Assembly (NCBI RefSeq): GCF_964204865.1
Contig: NC_135260.1
Coordinates: 13,144,001 to 13,208,000, forward strand
Reading direction: 5' to 3'
DNA: 64,000 bases
Source of the DNA: Styela clava
Lineage: Eukaryota
The notes beneath the pieces are model-generated. The model saw only the letters and a program-made list of their open reading frames with translations, was not told the DNA's origin and did not search any database. This document shows, one piece after another, positions 12,401 to 23,236 of the stretch. Both the position numbers and the translations under genes were made by a program. Position 1 is the first letter of the stretch. Each line of letters begins with the position of its first letter.

Positions 12401-15400
12401 ATTTGACATCATGATATTTCAATTCAATTGACATCTGATTGAAAGTGGTTATTTCAAATAGTTGTAAGAGATAATGAAGTAAAACATAAATAGTACGACA
12501 ATATATCTGAAAATCAAACTAGCAAATAGGCTTGGTACTAGTCTTGGTAAATATTCTTTCAGAACAAAAATATTAATTTTATAGTTAAAATCAAACACAA
12601 TGCACAAAATAAAAAAAGAGATTTGTCTAAATTCTAACCTCAGTATTCTTCGCCTATTCCCTTGAACTTTAAAACATAAAATACAAATGAGCGGTTTCTT
12701 GCATGTATTATACTATTAAAATAATATAAACCACATCTATCAAGAAAAGTCAGGGCACAAATGCAACATATTTTGTACAAGCGTACAAATGATTGAATAA
12801 CTCTAAAAATAATTTCCCCCTGAGGGAATACGACCCCAATTATAACGGTTTAAGGAATTTTTTGAATCATGGTGAACTCGTCATAATGTTGACCTTTGGT
12901 TAAAATAGTTTATATTTAAATATTCAGATCTTAGATCAAAATAAAATCATTTATCATAGTGCAAAATTAAGAAAGATAGTTTAACTTGACATAGAAAATC
13001 ACTTTCTTTGATCCGAAGTATAAAACTATTATAACAAGTCTTTGCAAACTTCATTTGTCAATACTTAAAAAAAAAATCTCATAAAAGCTTCCATAACAAA
13101 AATCATTATTTGGGTTCTATTTCAGTCCTCTTATTTTTTTAACAGAACAAGAGATAAAATATTACGTAAAAATGGAATTGATTGAAAAAAAAAACAGTAT
13201 TATACCAAGGTGGTATTCGAAGAAGTATAATATAACTTCGAATATACTTTTTATAATTTCCGATTGAGCCTACGTTTATACTCAGATATGACAATTCATC
13301 ACATTAATGACAGAGTTAAACGATCTATAGCCTATATCTCAAGCTTTACAGGATGTTTGTTGTTCCCCCAAACATGCAATATTTCCTCAAAATATTAGTT
13401 TACATAAAATCAGATTCCATTATTGATTAAGTTTATTGATTAGAGAAAATTCTTTACCATAAGAAACCACCTATGAACAACTTATTTCGTATACAACAAT
13501 TCTTTGTTATACTGATATACAAAGTCTGTTTTTTGAATATGTGAAAAATCATTTCGCAGTATATTAGGTTTTAGATAGGCCTACTATACTTTTATAACAA
13601 ATGACACTTCTGTATGATATAATTACAAAGTAATTTACAAACGCAAGAGACAATTTATTTCAATAAGTGTTTAAGAACAAATTTTGCACTAAAGAATTAT
13701 GATCAAGAAACAATAAAATGTATACAGCCAATATCCACTTTCAATTTGCGTATGCTATTTGAAGATAAAAAGTAAAAGTAGAAGTAAATCAAATTTGTAA
13801 AATGTTGTTTCAATACTCCACTTATATCTGAATATAGAATGTCTGTCCACCTTATACAACAATGTGCTATAATGGGTCACTCGATATCATGGTTTGTAGC
13901 AATGTACCTCGAATATGGACCAACTAACATGAAGACTTTATTGATTTATATCTAAAAACAATTCTGTTTGGCTTAAGAATTGGAAACCCAAAGTATACCA
14001 TCAGATAGAGTCTTTCTGAACAGTAGCACAAATATGAAGCTTTGCCTTTGTCAGAATAGATTTTTGAACTACCGAATAACAAGAATAGTCAACTTTACTC
14101 TTGCAAAGCACCATCCAAGTTAGTCTGTGTTATTTTAGACTGAGTCAGGAATTGCGTTAAAAAGGTTTTCCATATTAGGTATTGCTTGTACCTGTGTACG
14201 TGAGTACAGGAGTGATAGAATATATATTTTTTTTTAACAATTTTCCATAATCTATATAGTCGCTATAACATATTACAGTTATTTGAATTTTGCATAAATT
14301 AGGCAATTTTGAACCCCCATATTTCAGTATTTGATGCTAGTTTCTCCATCCATATAATTCAGATATTTCTGCCATTTACCGTAGCTTTACCGGGTTCAGG
14401 GTTTGAAACACTTTCATATTTAATATTTCCTGTTTGAAACAAGTTTTAAATTTCCAGATGTGATAGTCTATTATATAGTTGAATAGTGGGTTGAAAGGTT
14501 GATGTTAATTCAATGCCAGCTGATGAAACACTTTGAAAATAGGGGAAAGAGTCAGAAAAAGAGTCATAAAAGTGAAAACAGTCCCGGTACCTACCGTAAG
14601 TTACCTATGTTATAAACAGATTCTCAAATAGAAGGTCAACAAACAACACCTTTAACACAATAAAAGAAAAGCTACTGGTATCTTGAATTTTTAGATTAAC
14701 TGTGTTCAAAATGAGTTTCATTTAACATTAATATTTTTAAAAATATATTGAAAAAGCATTCACTTAATATACCCGCCCGTCTGTAAAGGCTATTTAAAAA
14801 AACCTCAAAACGCAAAAACTAGTAAGCGGAGTTGCAGTTACAGTGCTACAGGTACCGTACCGGTACATGTTCCTGTAGGTTAGGTACGGTACCGTACATA
14901 CAGACCTACGGTACTCTGAAAGTCTAAAAACATCAGAAGCTAGACTAGCTTGAAGTTTATAAAAAAGGATGGGATTTACATATATTTTTAACAGTACGGT
15001 ATCGGTACAATACTTTATTTCGAACAATTTCCTGAATATGATAACCGACAATCACTTTAACGGCATAAGGCCACACCAAGAGCAGCCAGGAGTAATGAAA
15101 CAATCTATTACAAAAGCGCAAAAACAAACGGGAGAGACGAAAAGCGTGGTTCACTAAAATTGATCAACGTCCAAAATTTATACCGTTAGTTGGCGGGCGA
15201 TAATTTTGTTTCTTTCAGTTTCGTAGCGCACATAAGGAAACTACCTGAAAATGATTTTAAAATGTTCCTTAGAAACTTAGTAACAAATAATGACTTGTTC
15301 CCATTTCCAAAAGTTGCATGTTTTACGGTAAAGACGCTTTTACTACAAGAAACATGTGTTACCATCCGTCCTATATTTTCTGCTTTTCCGGTATCATGAG

Positions 15401-15499: not shown

Positions 15500-16015
15500 T
15501 CCGCAGTTTCTGTTTTGGGATCCCCTAACTTTCGATCGATAAGTCTTCGGTCTCCGACCGATATTCTCGTTTATCTGTTAGATACACGCAATATCTCACG
15601 AAAGCGAGAATCTGCTCCAAATTTTGCATGTGCTTTCATCATATCTCGGACCAGAAGCCTATTGATTTTGGATGAATTCTGTCGTATAATTAGCGAGTTA
15701 TCAATTAATTAGTGATGGGACACGCGGTGTCACTATAGAGTCATGAATCGAAACCGCAGTTTCGATCTATAAGTCTTCGGTCTCCGACCGATATTCTCGT
15801 ATTCAGGGTTGTAGAAAAATCATTCTCTTATATGTATATTTATGTGTAACTCATCTCGCCAGTTGTGCTTTTTATATTCATATTTCATGAATTTTATGAG
15901 ATACGATGAATGCACATGCAAAATTTGGAGCAGATTCATCGTTCGTGAGATATCGCGTGCATCCAACAGACAAATACCCATGAACATACTTACCGATCTA
16001 AAGATCGATAAGTAA
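15500..16015. mobile_element. Cluster of Helentron-associated (HINE/DINE-1-like) fragments in direct and inverted orientation
   Basis: ~15570-15647 is the inverted repeat of ~15897-15970 (core GCACATGCAAAATTTGGAGCAGATTC..GTGAGATAT). 15531-15570 is repeated at 15761-15800. Terminal hairpin ACTTACCGATC-TAAA-GATCGATAAGT at ~15988-16013 is preceded by ACAGACA. Confidence 0.6.
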
Positions 16016-16077
16016 TGAGTGCTAGTAAGAAATATCAAGTAGAAGGATACTAATGAAAATGATACTAATACAGTTTC

Positions 16078-16412
16078 GGCGCGGCGGTGTGGCTCAACGG
16101 ACTAAGCGTTAGGAATACGCTCGCCACCGCACCTCTAATTACTCTGCGTGGGTTCGCATCCCATGCAGGGATGGTTATGTGCGAGAAGATTGCTGGACTC
16201 CTCGCCGTCGTTAGGTGGTTCACGTAACCGCTGGTCGGTTACGGCTTCCTCCACCACCAAGTCCATGCTTCCGAAAACAAACAATACAGTAAAACTAATC
16301 CCGTACCCGACTTGGAATGGTAACCGGACGAGAGGCCGTGGTTCGCCATATGGATAAGCCGTCTTATCGGCTTTCCTTTCCCCCGGGATAAATATGTAAA
16401 TCCTATCCTATC
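16078..16412 (+). mobile_element. Full-length tRNA-derived SINE inserted in LINE ORF1
   Basis: A box TGGCTCAACGG, B box GGTTCGCATCC, (ATCCT)n tail, 7-bp TSD CAGTTTC (16071-16077 and 16413-16419). Confidence 0.9.
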
Positions 16413-17083
16413 CAGTTTCTGTGTATAAAATCCTATCTATTAAATCAATCAAAAGAAGCTGTGATGAAGGTGGTGCCGAAAATGGTGTCATGAAATGTAA
16501 AATGCTCCTAAATAGTGATATTCCTCTTGAGATCAAACTACCTAATAGTTGCACTGGAGAAGAATTTGGAGTTACTATATAACGAGGCCGAATAATATCA
16601 GAAAATTTACCAGCTGGTGTTATATATGCCACTCACTCACTCATGAAGCGGAGGCATGCCCTCGACGAAGAAAATGAAGATTCTGTGGAGGGAAAGGAAA
16701 ACCTCACATTGAAAAAGATTGCATTGAAAAAAGCAAACTCAAAGAACACAATTCACAAATCAAGTAATAACAAACGCTGAAGATTCATCAAAAGCACAGG
16801 AAACATCAGCTAGAGATCACACAGCCACTGCAATAATTGAAATAACAAAAGAATTGCAAAACAGACACCAAATACAAATCAAAAACAGAAAAATCCGCAA
16901 AAACTAGTTCTAACACTCCACAAGAAGCACCAAATCAAGAATATCCAAATGCAAAAACAAATGAAAATGAACTTGAATCAAAAAGACACAATGATTTAAA
17001 TTCAGAGGATAATGTTATAGTGAATGAAACCATTGAAGAGATAATTGACTCCTAAATACCCATGCAATATGAAAATACTGTAG

Positions 17084-17350
17084 ACAAGAGAGCTATGCTC
17101 AAATATATGGACACGTAGCGCCACCCAATGGCAATAATTTTGATGACGTCATAGCGAAAAAAAAAGTAATAGCCTTCTGGAGAAAAATTTTATCTTCAAC
17201 CACTGAAAATTTCAAAGCAATTGGTCCAGTATTCGAAGAGAAAAGCGACTTTTTAAAAACGTGTCAAAGAACAACAACAAGGATAACAAGAACAAGAACA
17301 ACAACAACATAATATTGAAACGATCGTTATGTCCACTACGTGTCCAATAA
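17084..17350 (+). mobile_element. HINE / non-autonomous Helentron-like element inserted in LINE ORF1
   Basis: Starts ACAAGAG; subterminal inverted repeats GGACACGTAG/CTACGTGTCC; core AAATTTCAAAGCAATTGGTCCAGTATTCGAAGAGAAA; (AAC)n microsatellite; no TSD. Excision restores the frame ENTVDNVSLLDSEEDILLIGDS. Confidence 0.75.
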
Positions 17351-20300
17351 TGTCAGTCTCTTGGACAGTGAGGAGGACATTTTACTTATAGGAGATTCAC
17401 AAATGGCACATATGGAAAAGAAGATAAAGTACAAATTTTTTTAAAAAGATCATACTCTGGTAGTACTTTTAAACGAATGACCCTAGAAATAGAAATGGAA
17501 CAGAAAATTTGAAAAAATAATCATTTATGCAGGAACGAATGATATAACAAAAACGGACAAGGAAATTAGAGCACACATAAGAGAAATGATTTGTAAAGCA
17601 CAAAAAATTCAGAGAAAGCGTTTATATATGTGGTATAGTACCAATCCGTGGGAGAAGAACTGGACCAGATGGATGCGATCGAATAAATGTAAAATTAGAA
17701 AATGAAGCAATTGAACACGGTGCAATATTCATTCCAAAGCCTGAATGTTTTGAGGAAAAAAAGATAATAGACAGTTACTACTTAAAAGGCATGACGCATC
17801 TTAATGGAACGGTGCAAAAACAATATCAAAAATTATGTAAAATTGGAGGAGTCACAGTTAAAGAGGAAAACCGACGACAGCCCTCCAACAACTAAAAAAA
17901 CACTTGAAAAAAGATCCACGCCAAGTATAGAAAACGGAGTATTATATACCTAAACATTATTGAAAAATTAGATATTTTATTCTAGTTACAACCAGCATTG
18001 ATTGTTTTTCAACATATATGATTGTTTTTCTAGTTTTTTCACAATAGATACACATAATGCATTTCAAACAGAGAGTGAAAATATTGACCTACAATGTTGA
18101 AGGAATTCGTAATTCGGCCAAACGAAAACAAATTTTTAATTATCTCAAAAAAGATGGATCGGCCTCCAGGAAACACATTGTGCATCTCAAAAAGAGGCAA
18201 ATGCATGGACAAAAGAATGGGGAAATAGTGCTATTTGGTCAGTAAATTCAAATGTTTCATTTCAAGGCCTAATTACTTTAATATACAAAAAATATGACAA
18301 GAATGATTTGAAAAATTGGAGACCAATCACATTACTAAATTTCGAATATAAACTAATTGCAAAAGATCTGGTCATAAGAATGAAAAAAGTGCTACCTCAT
18401 ATAGTAAATAGTGATCAAACTGGCTTCATTGAAGAAAGGGTAATTCATGAAAACTTGATAACTATTAGGGACAATATTTTTTGGGCAAACAAACAAAATC
18501 AACCTTTAATAATATTCACTATTGACCAAGAAAAAGCATATGATACTGTTGACCGATCATTGTTAATCAAATGATTAAAAAAAACTAAATTTTGGAAATT
18601 TTTTTATAAAATGGGTTTATACTCTCCTTAATAACACAAGGGCAAAAATTATAACAAATGGGTTCATGTCAAAGGAATTCTATGTAGAGCGTGGAGTAAG
18701 ACAAGGTTGTCCGCTTGCGCCTCTATTATATCTAATATTGGCTGAATTATTAGCATGTAATATCAGATGTAATAGTAGAATTATAGGTTTTAAAAATTGC
18801 ACAGGAACAAGGGAAGTATATAAGGGATTTGCTGTCGATAACATAGTGACAGTAGATAATTTAAGATCAATAGATGCAGTATTGGAATGAATGGAAATTT
18901 TTGAAAAAGCTACAGGATTAAAAATAAACATTTCCAAGTGTAATATCATGTTGTGCGGGTCAGCTAAAAATTGGGATATAGGATCTACATATAAAGGTAT
19001 TCAAATCACACAGGAACTAAATTTTAGGAGCATTTATAGGAAATAGTATCATATCACGAGATAAAAACTAGATAAAAATAACTAAATCTATACAAAATGT
19101 AGTTAATTTGTGGCAGGATGAGAATTTAACTATGATAGGAAAATGTCTAATAGTGAAAGCGTTAATGCTATCCAAAGTGTGGCACATTGCTAACTATGAA
19201 ATAATGCCTGAAACATTTATTAAATAATTAGAATCCATCATTTGGAAATTCATTAGGCACAATAAACCCCAGTTAGTGGGTAGACAAATTGTATCTGGTA
19301 GCTTCACATCTGGTGGTCTAAATATGATGGACCTCAAAAGTCAATTAAAGGCTATTCAACTCAAATGGATATTTAAATTGCTCAAACAAGAGCTATAAGC
19401 CATGGAGTAGAAGGGCTAGTTACAATACCAAATTTCTATTATCAACTAATTTAAGAAAATTCAATTGGAAACAAGTCATCCATCATATGTAAATGAGGTT
19501 AAAAATGAAATATTGTGGTATAATCCCTTGATTCTAGATCAGAATTTTCGATTTTTAAATAAGTGGATTCAAGCCAAAATCATATCATTGGCTGATATTT
19601 TGAATAATACTGTGTATACATTGACAAATAGAATATACTCCATTTCTCAGATTAGAGATAGCTGAAGGCAATTTTATTTAAACAAATGTTCCGATGAAAT
19701 TAACCAAGTTTGGAATAGTTTACCATTAAGCTGAAGGAAATACTAGCGAATAATCATAGTTTAGATGAAAATAGACCAGAAACGGTTCAGAAGATTTAAC
19801 TACAAAAAAAACTAAGTAACTTGATAAAAATTAAAGAAATTGCTACACGCCATGATATTTACATAACTCAAAAATATAATTTGAGGATACCAATTAATTG
19901 GCAAAGCGAAATACCTAACAAGTATAAAATTTTAAGCTGGAAAATTTCACATAATGGTTTACCAACAAGTGATAAGATGAATATTGATTGGTTTTATGAA
20001 GAAAAGGGATTATGTGTATTGTGTGGTGAGCATGAAGAAACATGTATACTTTTATTTAGTGATTGTGAATTTGTAGATGACTTTTGGGAATAGTGTAACG
20101 TAGACATAAACAAGGGTAAAATTATTTCGAACAATTTCCAAAACGATACAGGATTTCTAATTACCCATTGTGGAAAGTCAGCTATATGGAAATATCGAAA
20201 TAGTATAAAATATGATGATGCATACCAGATGCAACACACGTGCAATTTTGAAATGTAAGCATTTGGGGGTCATCAAATTAATGTCGAATTTCTGTATTTA

Positions 20301-21150: not shown

Positions 21151-21534
21151 TGCAACTTCTTATGCTGTTCTTTGTATCAAACTGCCTGTGTCACGTTAGA
21201 AGATGCTGCTACATACAACTGCGAGTAGTAGTAGTGGTATTTATTGTATTGTATCCTACAGGAGAATGTAGATTAATCAGAAGACTCAAGGATTCCGGAT
21301 GGGTTGTTTATTGTACGGCAACTCCAGTATCAAACTTAAAACAGAATGAACAGATTAAACAAAACGCCACTAGAGAACTGAGAACACATAAAAACACGAC
21401 CGATCGACCGCCAGGTAGCCGCCGGAGAGAATAGATCGAACGACACAGTTTTTCTCTCACGTGTAGTAAGTGTTCGGAGTCCAGATCCGACGAAACTGCA
21501 TTAAACAAGGGTCAAAATAACTGTTTATAAACAT

Positions 21535-23236
21535 GCAATGCAATACATATTTCTTGAAACGAGAAAAATATAATGTGAACAAAAATAGTATCAATCTTTT
21601 ACACTACAAAGGGAAACAAATTAAAGATCCACAAAAAATAGCAAACATAGCCGCTGATTTTTATGAAAACTTATTAACTCTCAAGACAAATTTAAAGACA
21701 GAAGATATAAAAACATAGATCTTTTAACTGTGAACCTTATGCCAAAACTTCAAAAAATGAAAGTGGTCTCACTAATATGGTCCAAGAGAAATCTCGATTT
21801 CCTCGGAAAAATCACTGTTATTAAATCTTTGATGTTGAGCTTATTGGTTTATGTAGTATCCATCTTACCAGTAAGACTGCCCAATAGTTTTATAATGGAA
21901 GTAAATAAGATATGCCATGAATTTTTATGGGGTTCAAAATGGGAGAGGATCAAACGTAATACATTAATTGCATCTGTAAAGGAAGGGGGGGCCAATATGC
22001 TCGATGTGGAATCATTTTTCATTGGTCAAAAATTAAGATGGGTCAAATTTTTAATAAATGACGAAATTGATGTCTCATGGAAGTCCATAGAGCAGTTTTT
22101 CCTAAATTTGTACGGAGGAATGGCTTTATTTGATGGAAATGTATATTCCCTTGGAGTGTTTATCAAGAATATTTTTTCCACATGTTTGAGAGTTACTCTG
22201 TACTATTGGTTTATTTTCAAATCCAAGGTCATTAAATGGAATGCAAGTCATTTACATGAACCTCTGTGGTTCAATAGAAATATATCTTGTCAAGGAAAAC
22301 TTTTATATATGGATAATTGGAATAGTAAAAATATTTGCTTCGTTGAAGATATTTGTGATTCTAAACAGCAAATTGCAATATTTCCGTATATTTTTCATCA
22401 TTATTGTTTTTCTAGTTTTTATGATGACATGCTAGCGTATTTAAAAATTATATCATGTATACCCCAGGAATGGAAAACTAAATTATCAAAAACCTCACAA
22501 ATCAATCCACATCTTAGTCTGATCGAAGATATTAAAAGCATTAAGAAAACCTCTCGATACATATATGATAAGCTTTGTAATGTAAAAATTTTGCCGCCAC
22601 CCGAAAAAATAGAAAAATGGTCAAAAGAATTGTGCAGAAACTTAGATAATTGGTTGACATTGTATGAAAAAGTCTTTTATTGCTCTATTGAATCCAGACT
22701 TCGTTCATTCCATGTCAAATTTGCTTTGCGAGCAGTGCCCACCAATGACCTGCTTTATAGAATAAATAAAACACAAAGTCCAAAATGTACATTTTGTAAT
22801 ATGCAAGTTGAAACTGTGTTACATTTATTTTATCTCTGTGATTTTGTGCAGCAATTTTGGGAAATAGTTAATGTTTGGCTAACCGTTGAGTATGGATTAA
22901 ACCTTAATTTGACACATAGAGAAATGTTATTGGGGGTGGAGCAAAACCAGGGTATAAATTGTGTTTTATTGTGTGCCAGATATTTTATATACAAATGTAA
23001 ACTGCGTAATGAAAGGCCTCAATTTTGCCAATTTTTATATATGATAAAAAATACTATAAACTGTGAAAAGATTATTGCAACTAAAAATGGTAAACTGTCA
23101 ATCCATGAGAAGAAGTGGAAAACTATTATGTGCTCGTTTTTTTGAATTGTTATTGTGTTTATATAAATGTATTATGTGATATTGTGCCTATATAATGTGA
23201 TGTTTTTATTAAAAAAATATATCTAAAAAAAAAAAC
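21535..23236 (+). mobile_element. 5'-truncated, RT-deleted Tx1/L1-clade LINE with intact 471-codon C-terminal ORF2 segment
   Basis: 15-bp TSD ACTGTTTATAAACAT (21520-21534, 23237-23251) and poly(A). ORF 21730-23145 has GKITVIKSL, GGANMLD, PLWFNRNI and CTFC..ETVLHLFYLC. The upstream piece 21533-21718 is the EN-RT linker (YFLKREK...FYENL). Confidence 0.92.

Follow-up and report, generated by a model that had tools for sequence, protein, structure and literature searches.

An SGNH esterase domain appended to the RRM and zinc-knuckle ORF1 of L1-group LINEs in the ascidian Styela clava

Introduction

Two kinds of protein encoded by open reading frame 1 (ORF1; protein, ORF1p) of retrotransposons come closest to that of the element described here, a long interspersed nuclear element (LINE) found in a 64,000-nucleotide stretch of the genome of the ascidian Styela clava (NCBI RefSeq assembly GCF_964204865.1, contig NC_135260.1, positions 13,144,001 to 13,208,000 of the forward strand; hereafter the window, to whose whole length the coordinates below refer). 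According to the accessible portions of the literature, type IV ORF1ps, known from CR1, L2, RTEX and Penelope-like elements and with ZfL2-1 as their model (PDB 4c1b, PMC3905857), have in common with this element an SGNH domain with a catalytic triad that follows a poorly conserved linker. Type I ORF1ps, known from Tx1-like L1-group, Jockey and I elements (PMC4120745, PMC5203782), share with it the tandem RNA recognition motif (RRM) folds followed by a CX2CX4HX4C knuckle, as well as an ORF2 with APE endonuclease, reverse transcriptase (RT) and zf-RVT, a poly(A) tail and short target duplications. In its available part, PMC5203782 ties ORF1s with RRM and CCHC knuckles to Tx1.

Esterases have been placed in CR1, L2, RTEX, rotifer long terminal repeat (LTR) and Penelope-like elements in the available text of several studies (PMC4120745, PMC13343379, PMC5408684, PMC7140322, PMC6431247). 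As far as its accessible text goes, the 2013 survey of Schneider et al. (PMC3905857) reported them in CR1, RTEX and Penelope elements, found none in Repbase together with an RRM or any other RNA-binding domain, and suggested that esterase and RRM might be mutually exclusive in ORF1p. No mention of an esterase in L1/Tx1 elements was found in the available material of PMC5203782 (two of its three supplements included) or PMC10294476, the latter naming 14 L1-Tx1 families of C. gigas, and no description of the RRM and esterase combination in L1/Tx1 ORF1s was found in the literature searched, although Repbase, Dfam, subscription journals and some supplements could hold one. A further parallel is a Tx1 ORF1 of Crassostrea gigas with a NADAR domain (PMC12477816, available part), which likewise bears an accessory enzyme; the enzyme differs, but some of the relatives reported below carry both.

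The Styela ORF1p differs from the type IV proteins of that survey, as far as its text is available, in the two RRM folds and two knuckles that precede the esterase, and from ZfL2-1 in the L1-group RT, the loss of most equivalents of His191 and Ser228, and a domain that is not uniformly basic. Compared with type I, it adds a C-terminal SGNH domain on a long linker, and its second knuckle is spaced CX2CX6HX4C. The window copy itself is a decayed, dead L1-group LINE whose ORF1 carries an SGNH esterase domain. The favoured reading, with a probability of roughly 0.7, is that the ORF1p of this element had two predicted RRMs and two knuckles tethered, through a long linker predicted to be disordered, to an SGNH domain that probably functions as an ester hydrolase.

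Structure of the ORF1 protein

From its N-terminus on, the ORF1p of an intact relative consists of a pair of predicted RRM folds, a pair of zinc knuckles, a linker predicted to be disordered, the SGNH domain and a tail of basic character. The predicted model shows two beta-alpha-beta-beta-alpha-beta domains, the knuckles, helices, the disordered linker and a compact C-terminal domain, with two long helices at residues 226-278, ahead of the esterase, of middling confidence. When the N-terminal part was modelled alone, a predicted local distance difference test score (pLDDT) of 85 was obtained, and all 50 listed fold matches were RRM-type proteins covering one or both halves, at middling Z scores of 8.3-9.7; a profile search from ORF1 also matched the RRM of RBMS1 (E 1.3e-8). 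The host families show the RRM plus CCHC knuckle arrangement of type I ORF1s, and a tail resembling KR..SP..KK was present in the nine ORF1s compared.

The C-terminal domain of the intact relative lies above the Pfam cut-off for PF13472 (Lipase_GDSL_2; E 8.6e-8). Its predicted fold, flavodoxin-like and with blocks I, II, III and V, matches SGNH hydrolases (Z 18.7, rmsd 2.0, 145 residues aligned), and enzymes acting on O-acetyl groups are among the closest folds. The best match of the single sequence in the PDB is the ZfL2-1 esterase 4c1b (E 4.5e-6). Although host families are only 21-44% identical overall, the catalytic Ser, the oxyanion Gly and Asn, and the Asp are kept in 12/12 of them, and the His in 11/12. 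The ratio of nonsynonymous to synonymous divergence (dN/dS) is 0.06-0.19 in six of the eight pairs with a finite dS. Judged by these substitution patterns, the esterase domain is under purifying selection, and it is very probably catalytically active.

Copies in the genome and phylogenetic placement

Searches of the 377 Mb host genome at the DNA level recovered a sister family of eight near-identical young copies (6.2 kb, 98.4-99.4% identity), with an ORF1 of about 584 codons and an ORF2 of 1276 codons from stop to stop, both open in 4/8 copies. Each of the eight ends in a poly(A) tail, five show a target duplication of 6-10 bp, and the copies sit on eight chromosomes in flanks that appear unrelated by eye. 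At the protein level, at least 53 esterase matches were found, and a single open frame spans from RRM to esterase in several families. Among 45 fetched loci, examined with profiles built from these same families, 43 had an esterase match, 37 an RRM or knuckle upstream of it, 38 an RT downstream and 34 both. The contiguity of esterase and L1-group ORF2 that the original prediction proposed to look for is thus seen in many copies. Compared with the young family, the RTs are between 100% and about 48% identical, and this divergence between host families shows that the lineage is old. Sequencing runs guessed to be RNA span almost the whole length of the young family and leave the unique window DNA uncovered; because a low background of DNA, spread over some ten copies, might produce the same pattern, it is not counted as evidence.

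Two loci deserve separate mention. In L076:6662-8302 (protein P0263) a lone ORF1 with Arg in place of the catalytic His has no ORF2 downstream; the NCBI model of P0263 joins it to a C-terminal part resembling what we take to be an ETS domain, and the case may be either an exaptation or a gene-model artefact. At L015:8232-9785, an intronless host-like ORF of 518 codons lies on the same strand, some 900 bases past the 3′ end of the element, which may possibly have been inserted at the front of a host gene.

The elements belong to the L1 group of non-LTR retrotransposons, as judged from their ORF2 sequence, which encodes an APE endonuclease, an RT and a C-terminal zinc finger (Pfam). This ORF2 matches human L1 ORF2p at E 4.7e-87, compared with 3e-18 and 3.6e-30 for the control ORF2s of host CR1-type and I-type elements (host labels that come from our own motif reading and not from a database). 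In a FastTree phylogeny of 143 rows, 9/9 esterase-family RTs form one clade; in a likelihood tree of 49 rows, from which near-duplicates and 95 of the 120 database rows were left out, 7/7 do so (support 100/99) inside the L1 group (100/100). Joining them to CR1 is rejected by the approximately unbiased test (p-AU 5e-5), and host L1-group families without esterase branch outside the esterase clade. The RT phylogeny thus bears out the earlier assignment as far as the L1 group is concerned, and the profiles suggested along with it found PF13472 in the intact relative, and RVT_1, zf-RVT and the APE endonuclease in ORF2.

The label Tx1-like refers only to the RRM-plus-knuckle type of ORF1, because searches with ORF2 and ORF1, together with cluster look-ups, gave no named Tx1 or L1 element as a reference. 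Some Tx1 families insert sequence-specifically; in this respect the young family departs from type I elements, since no fixed target sequence was seen by eye in the flanks of its eight copies. The proposal that an L1/Tx1 lineage had gained the esterase through a module swap stands as far as an L1-group lineage and the position in ORF1 are concerned, but the domain was appended to a Tx1-type ORF1 that kept both RRMs and its zinc knuckles, which is the less expected outcome.

An explanation now largely refuted takes the esterase for a passenger, or for something that came to lie there by chance, such as a CR1/L2 piece beside an L1-group ORF2. It could draw on the window copy, which taken alone is broken and laden with insertions, and on the dispensability of the ZfL2-1 ORF1p in HeLa cells reported in the accessible text of PMC3905857. 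It has to face, however, the single open frames from RRM to esterase, RTs downstream of the esterase that are 43-100% identical to the L1-group query, and the low esterase dN/dS. The census of PF13472 points the same way, as 7/8 matches in the genome are these elements and no esterase was found on the host CR1-type ORF1s examined. The juxtaposition of a CR1/L2 esterase fragment was accordingly discarded on contiguity in many copies, the RT tree and this census.

Occurrence in other animals

Among the best 150 representatives retrieved with the ORF1 profile, 27 hold both an esterase and RRM-like regions, and in four the esterase comes first. The query families (P0001, P0262, P0263) account for three of the 27, and one is named as a pearl-oyster protein. 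In 8/13 metagenome contigs, the RRM-esterase ORF1 is directly followed by an RT-bearing ORF2, and the seven metagenome elements with a full RT form an L1-group clade of their own. A tree uniting the esterase RTs of the host and of other animals in one clade does not score best, yet it is not rejected either (p-AU 0.074).

The esterase tree splits into a host group (support 82), the second group just described (86) and a large group, with a support of 60 for the deep split. Several members of the large group carry PHD or NADAR domains, and the esterase-first proteins nest there; NADAR, an ADP-ribose-processing domain, was found in 13/26 related esterase-bearing proteins scanned. In the other animals' group, the equivalent of His191 is kept in 14/26 and that of Ser228 in 12/26. 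As to domain order, P0265, P0266, P0268 and P0272 have the esterase ahead of RRMs and knuckles, and P0270, P0300, P0323 and P0405 hold RRM, knuckles, NADAR and esterase within one protein. On the sequence comparisons, the esterase-bearing ORF1 lineage is old and extends beyond this host.

Spliced-leader relics at the 5′ ends

Over the roughly 90 bases next to the start codon, the 5′ ends of the young copies differ from one another and hold short motifs, some of them stacked. Three leader variants have 1022, 108 and 22 exact matches in the genome (controls, 0), mostly in tandem arrays with a GT donor after the exon, and GT(A/G)AG follows in 22/22 array copies examined. By eye, 15 of 16 positions match the Ciona leader, with one gap; Rfam gave no match on the arrays. 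Of the 28 esterase elements whose ORF1 start is intact, 20 have a leader match (at most 2 mismatches in 15 bases), against 0/600 antisense control windows, although the third variant was picked after these flanks had been viewed. Dispersed leader copies also stand at the head of CR1-type elements, and the same family can bear either variant. The window copy has lost its leader-bearing 5′ end.

Candidate arrays of spliced-leader RNA genes were located at C6:19.27-19.72 Mb (L100, L169-L172) and C4:23.30-23.48 Mb (L101, L102), with three variants and periods close to 490 and 831 bp; within the array on C4 lies an L1-group element that has a CCHC ORF and gave no esterase match. At position 1501 of L110/L111 and L113/L114, a Copia-like LTR element bears a leader variant in each of its terminal repeats; in the 5′ one it lies 56 bases ahead of the gag start. 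In L019, extra sequence with a degenerate leader relic lies inside the target duplication, about 100 bases upstream of the element core, and is apparently a 5′ transduction from an earlier insertion site.

Relics at the start of 20/28 copies suggest that the element RNA is likely trans-spliced to the leader in this host. An origin through insertion into spliced-leader genes followed by promoter read-through, with no trans-splicing, is improbable. An L1-group RT does sit within a leader-gene array (L102), but it falls outside the esterase clade; moreover, the young copies are dispersed over eight chromosomes in unrelated flanks with no leader intron at the 3′ side, the join lies at the exon end and one family takes either variant. 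In available sources, leaders have likewise been described at the 5′ end of retroposed RNA in dinoflagellate retrogenes (PMC5585692, PMC12014239) and on transposable element transcripts of Hydra (PMC12220107). Unlike those cases, autonomous LINE copies here hold the leader in the DNA of a chordate genome, with stacked relics.

The window copy

All features of the window copy lie on the + strand, except for one inserted repeat to which no strand is assigned. ORF1 homology is detectable by tblastn only from 16418 on, which corresponds to residue 124 of the intact protein; nothing was found upstream of it in the window, and other copies of this subfamily, at least three of which exist in the genome at 90-92% identity, lack that part too. 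The original prediction had placed the ORF1 start at about 16045 and considered the frame largely open. Neither holds: its ENGVMKC peptide is at 16478, the four esterase blocks are scattered, among several stops, across three frames, and no open piece exceeds 101 aa. Nothing of the first RRM is left, and the remnant begins with the second half of the second RRM-fold domain (16418-16576, residues 124-179 of the intact relative; 54% identity, profile 37 bits at 16439-16576). Two knuckles that the original prediction had not noted, CX2CX4HX4C and CX2CX6HX4C, follow at 16618-16725 (profile 52 bits; translation), the second broken by a stop, and then a low-complexity linker (16726-17372), for which the intact relative's model shows disorder.

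The frameshifted SGNH domain (17373-17811) holds LLIGDS at 17382-17399, with the GDS placed at 17382, SYSG at 17450-17461 (block II Gly at 17459), IYAGTND at 17523-17543 (GTND at 17523) and KGMTHLN at 17785-17805, at most 9 bp away from the earlier positions for those blocks that had been given one. Two pieces of it score 66 and 43 bits with a profile built from relatives in the same genome, values which, together with the intact relative above the Lipase_GDSL_2 cut-off, show that these motifs are not a matter of chance. The Gly read in the DxxH motif is indeed there, but the closest copy, 90% identical in DNA, reads KDLTHLN and keeps the Asp, so that the change reflects decay of the window copy. 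A basic tail (KR..SP..KK, a putative nuclear localisation signal; 60% identity to the intact relative) closes ORF1 at 17822-17911.

By homology to intact relatives, ORF2 starts at ATG 18057 with the first part of the endonuclease (18057-18260), cut at 18260 by a 1.36-kb deletion that takes out most of this domain. The RT (18263-19028; Pfam RVT_1 and profile) is frameshifted and its catalytic motif is broken, reading FAVDN, and the rest of ORF2 (19029-20292; Pfam and homology) includes zf-RVT at about 19887-20087. An L1-style ORF2 is therefore present as predicted, but short of most of its endonuclease and of a sound RT motif, two defects that the prediction had not noted. Homology stops near 20292, and neither a family 3′ untranslated region (UTR) nor a poly(A) was recognised at this copy.

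Two insertions into the copy had been correctly noted. One is a short interspersed nuclear element (SINE) at 16078-16412, on the upstream edge of the ORF1 remnant, with a 7-bp target duplication; copies 95-96% identical to it occur elsewhere, two of which have landed in the ORF1 of L015, and ARAGORN gave no match on it. The other, formerly labelled HINE, is a 267-bp non-autonomous repeat that splits the linker at 17084-17350, with 99% identical copies at two other places of L022 and many more elsewhere.

Just upstream of the SINE, 15521-16016 is a repeat with internal inverted arms that no match ties to the LINE. An exact 18-base direct repeat occurs at 15015-15032 and 20122-20139, the second copy within the end of ORF2, and may be due to chance. 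Further downstream, 21500-23235 is the 3′ part of a second, unrelated L1-group element, with a 492-aa open frame, zf-RVT and an A-run at its end; it is 24% identical to the esterase family and has a peptide motif in common with the esterase-less family L125.

Discussion

The favoured reading of a two-RRM, two-knuckle ORF1p with a tethered, working esterase would imply the following cycle. RRMs and knuckles would package the RNA of the element itself, in the manner of other type I ORF1ps, which would make the esterase an add-on enzyme of the ribonucleoprotein rather than a stand-in for RNA binding. By analogy with ZfL2-1, the tethered esterase would bind and cut acyl esters of membrane lipids, allowing the particle to dock and be released on its way to the nucleus. 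The basic tail would likely provide nuclear import, and the RNA would likely be capped through spliced-leader trans-splicing before being copied back. That membrane-lipid acyl esters are the substrate is a tentative proposal, somewhat short of even odds.

Several observations weigh against this picture. Pfam matches of the RRM type stay under the cut-off, so that the RRM call depends on the model and the profile, and 4c1b is absent from the best 60 PDB matches when the family profile is used. In one host esterase (L076) the catalytic His is replaced by Arg; dN/dS is 0.32 and 0.63 in the other two finite pairs and undefined in three, dS being saturated or near saturation in most. As far as the available text of PMC3905857 goes, the membrane model of ZfL2-1 depends on a very basic esterase domain (isoelectric point, pI, 10.8). 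The host esterases have a pI of 5.3-9.5 (6.25 in the young family), the His191 position is Tyr in 11/12 of them and the Ser228 position is Ser in only 2/12; both features count against a direct copying of the ZfL2-1 lipid model.

The main rival, counter-defence, would make use of just these differences: a particle-borne esterase would strip an acyl or acetyl mark from a restricting host protein, RNA or small molecule. Such a role would suit a domain that keeps neither the surface charge nor the residues particular to ZfL2-1 and whose closest folds include O-acetyl-acting enzymes, and the NADAR domains in half of the 26 related proteins suggest that these ORF1s gather modification-removing enzymes. 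Even so, it is unlikely, as no host mark or target is known, NADAR is not on the host families, a common fold shows no function and, in the accessible text of PMC3905857, the ZfL2-1 esterase failed a histone deacetylation assay. Considerably less probable is a non-catalytic, Oskar-like binding module, which would direct the particle to germ plasm or attach to RNA. Pfam OSK matches, which are weak (E 0.03-0.06), and the existence of SGNH proteins without catalysis (PMC3905857, available text) would allow for it, but the near-complete retention of the catalytic residues across such divergent host families argues for an enzyme.

A wider proposal, at slightly less than even odds, is that RRM-knuckle-esterase ORF1s form a widespread and uncatalogued class among the coat proteins of L1-group elements in marine invertebrates. 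They would have arisen more than once, with the esterase C-terminal in two separate RT clades and N-terminal in a third set, overturning the proposed exclusion between esterase and RRM. In this ascidian, they would be represented by a young family without a promoter-bearing 5′ UTR of its own, which would be re-capped by spliced-leader trans-splicing in each cycle, leaving the stacked leader relics.

These elements break the split between type I and type IV ORF1s drawn in the literature and add the L1 group to the range of esterase carriers. What the esterase does in LINEs has been an open question since 2003, and in ZfL2-1 its role is inseparable from RNA packaging, because the ORF1p there lacks any structured domain for RNA binding and can be dispensed with in HeLa cells (PMC3905857, available text). 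In the young intact family of Styela clava, where RRMs would do the packaging and the esterase sits on a linker, the esterase alone could be deleted or inactivated, in a chordate with manipulable embryos.

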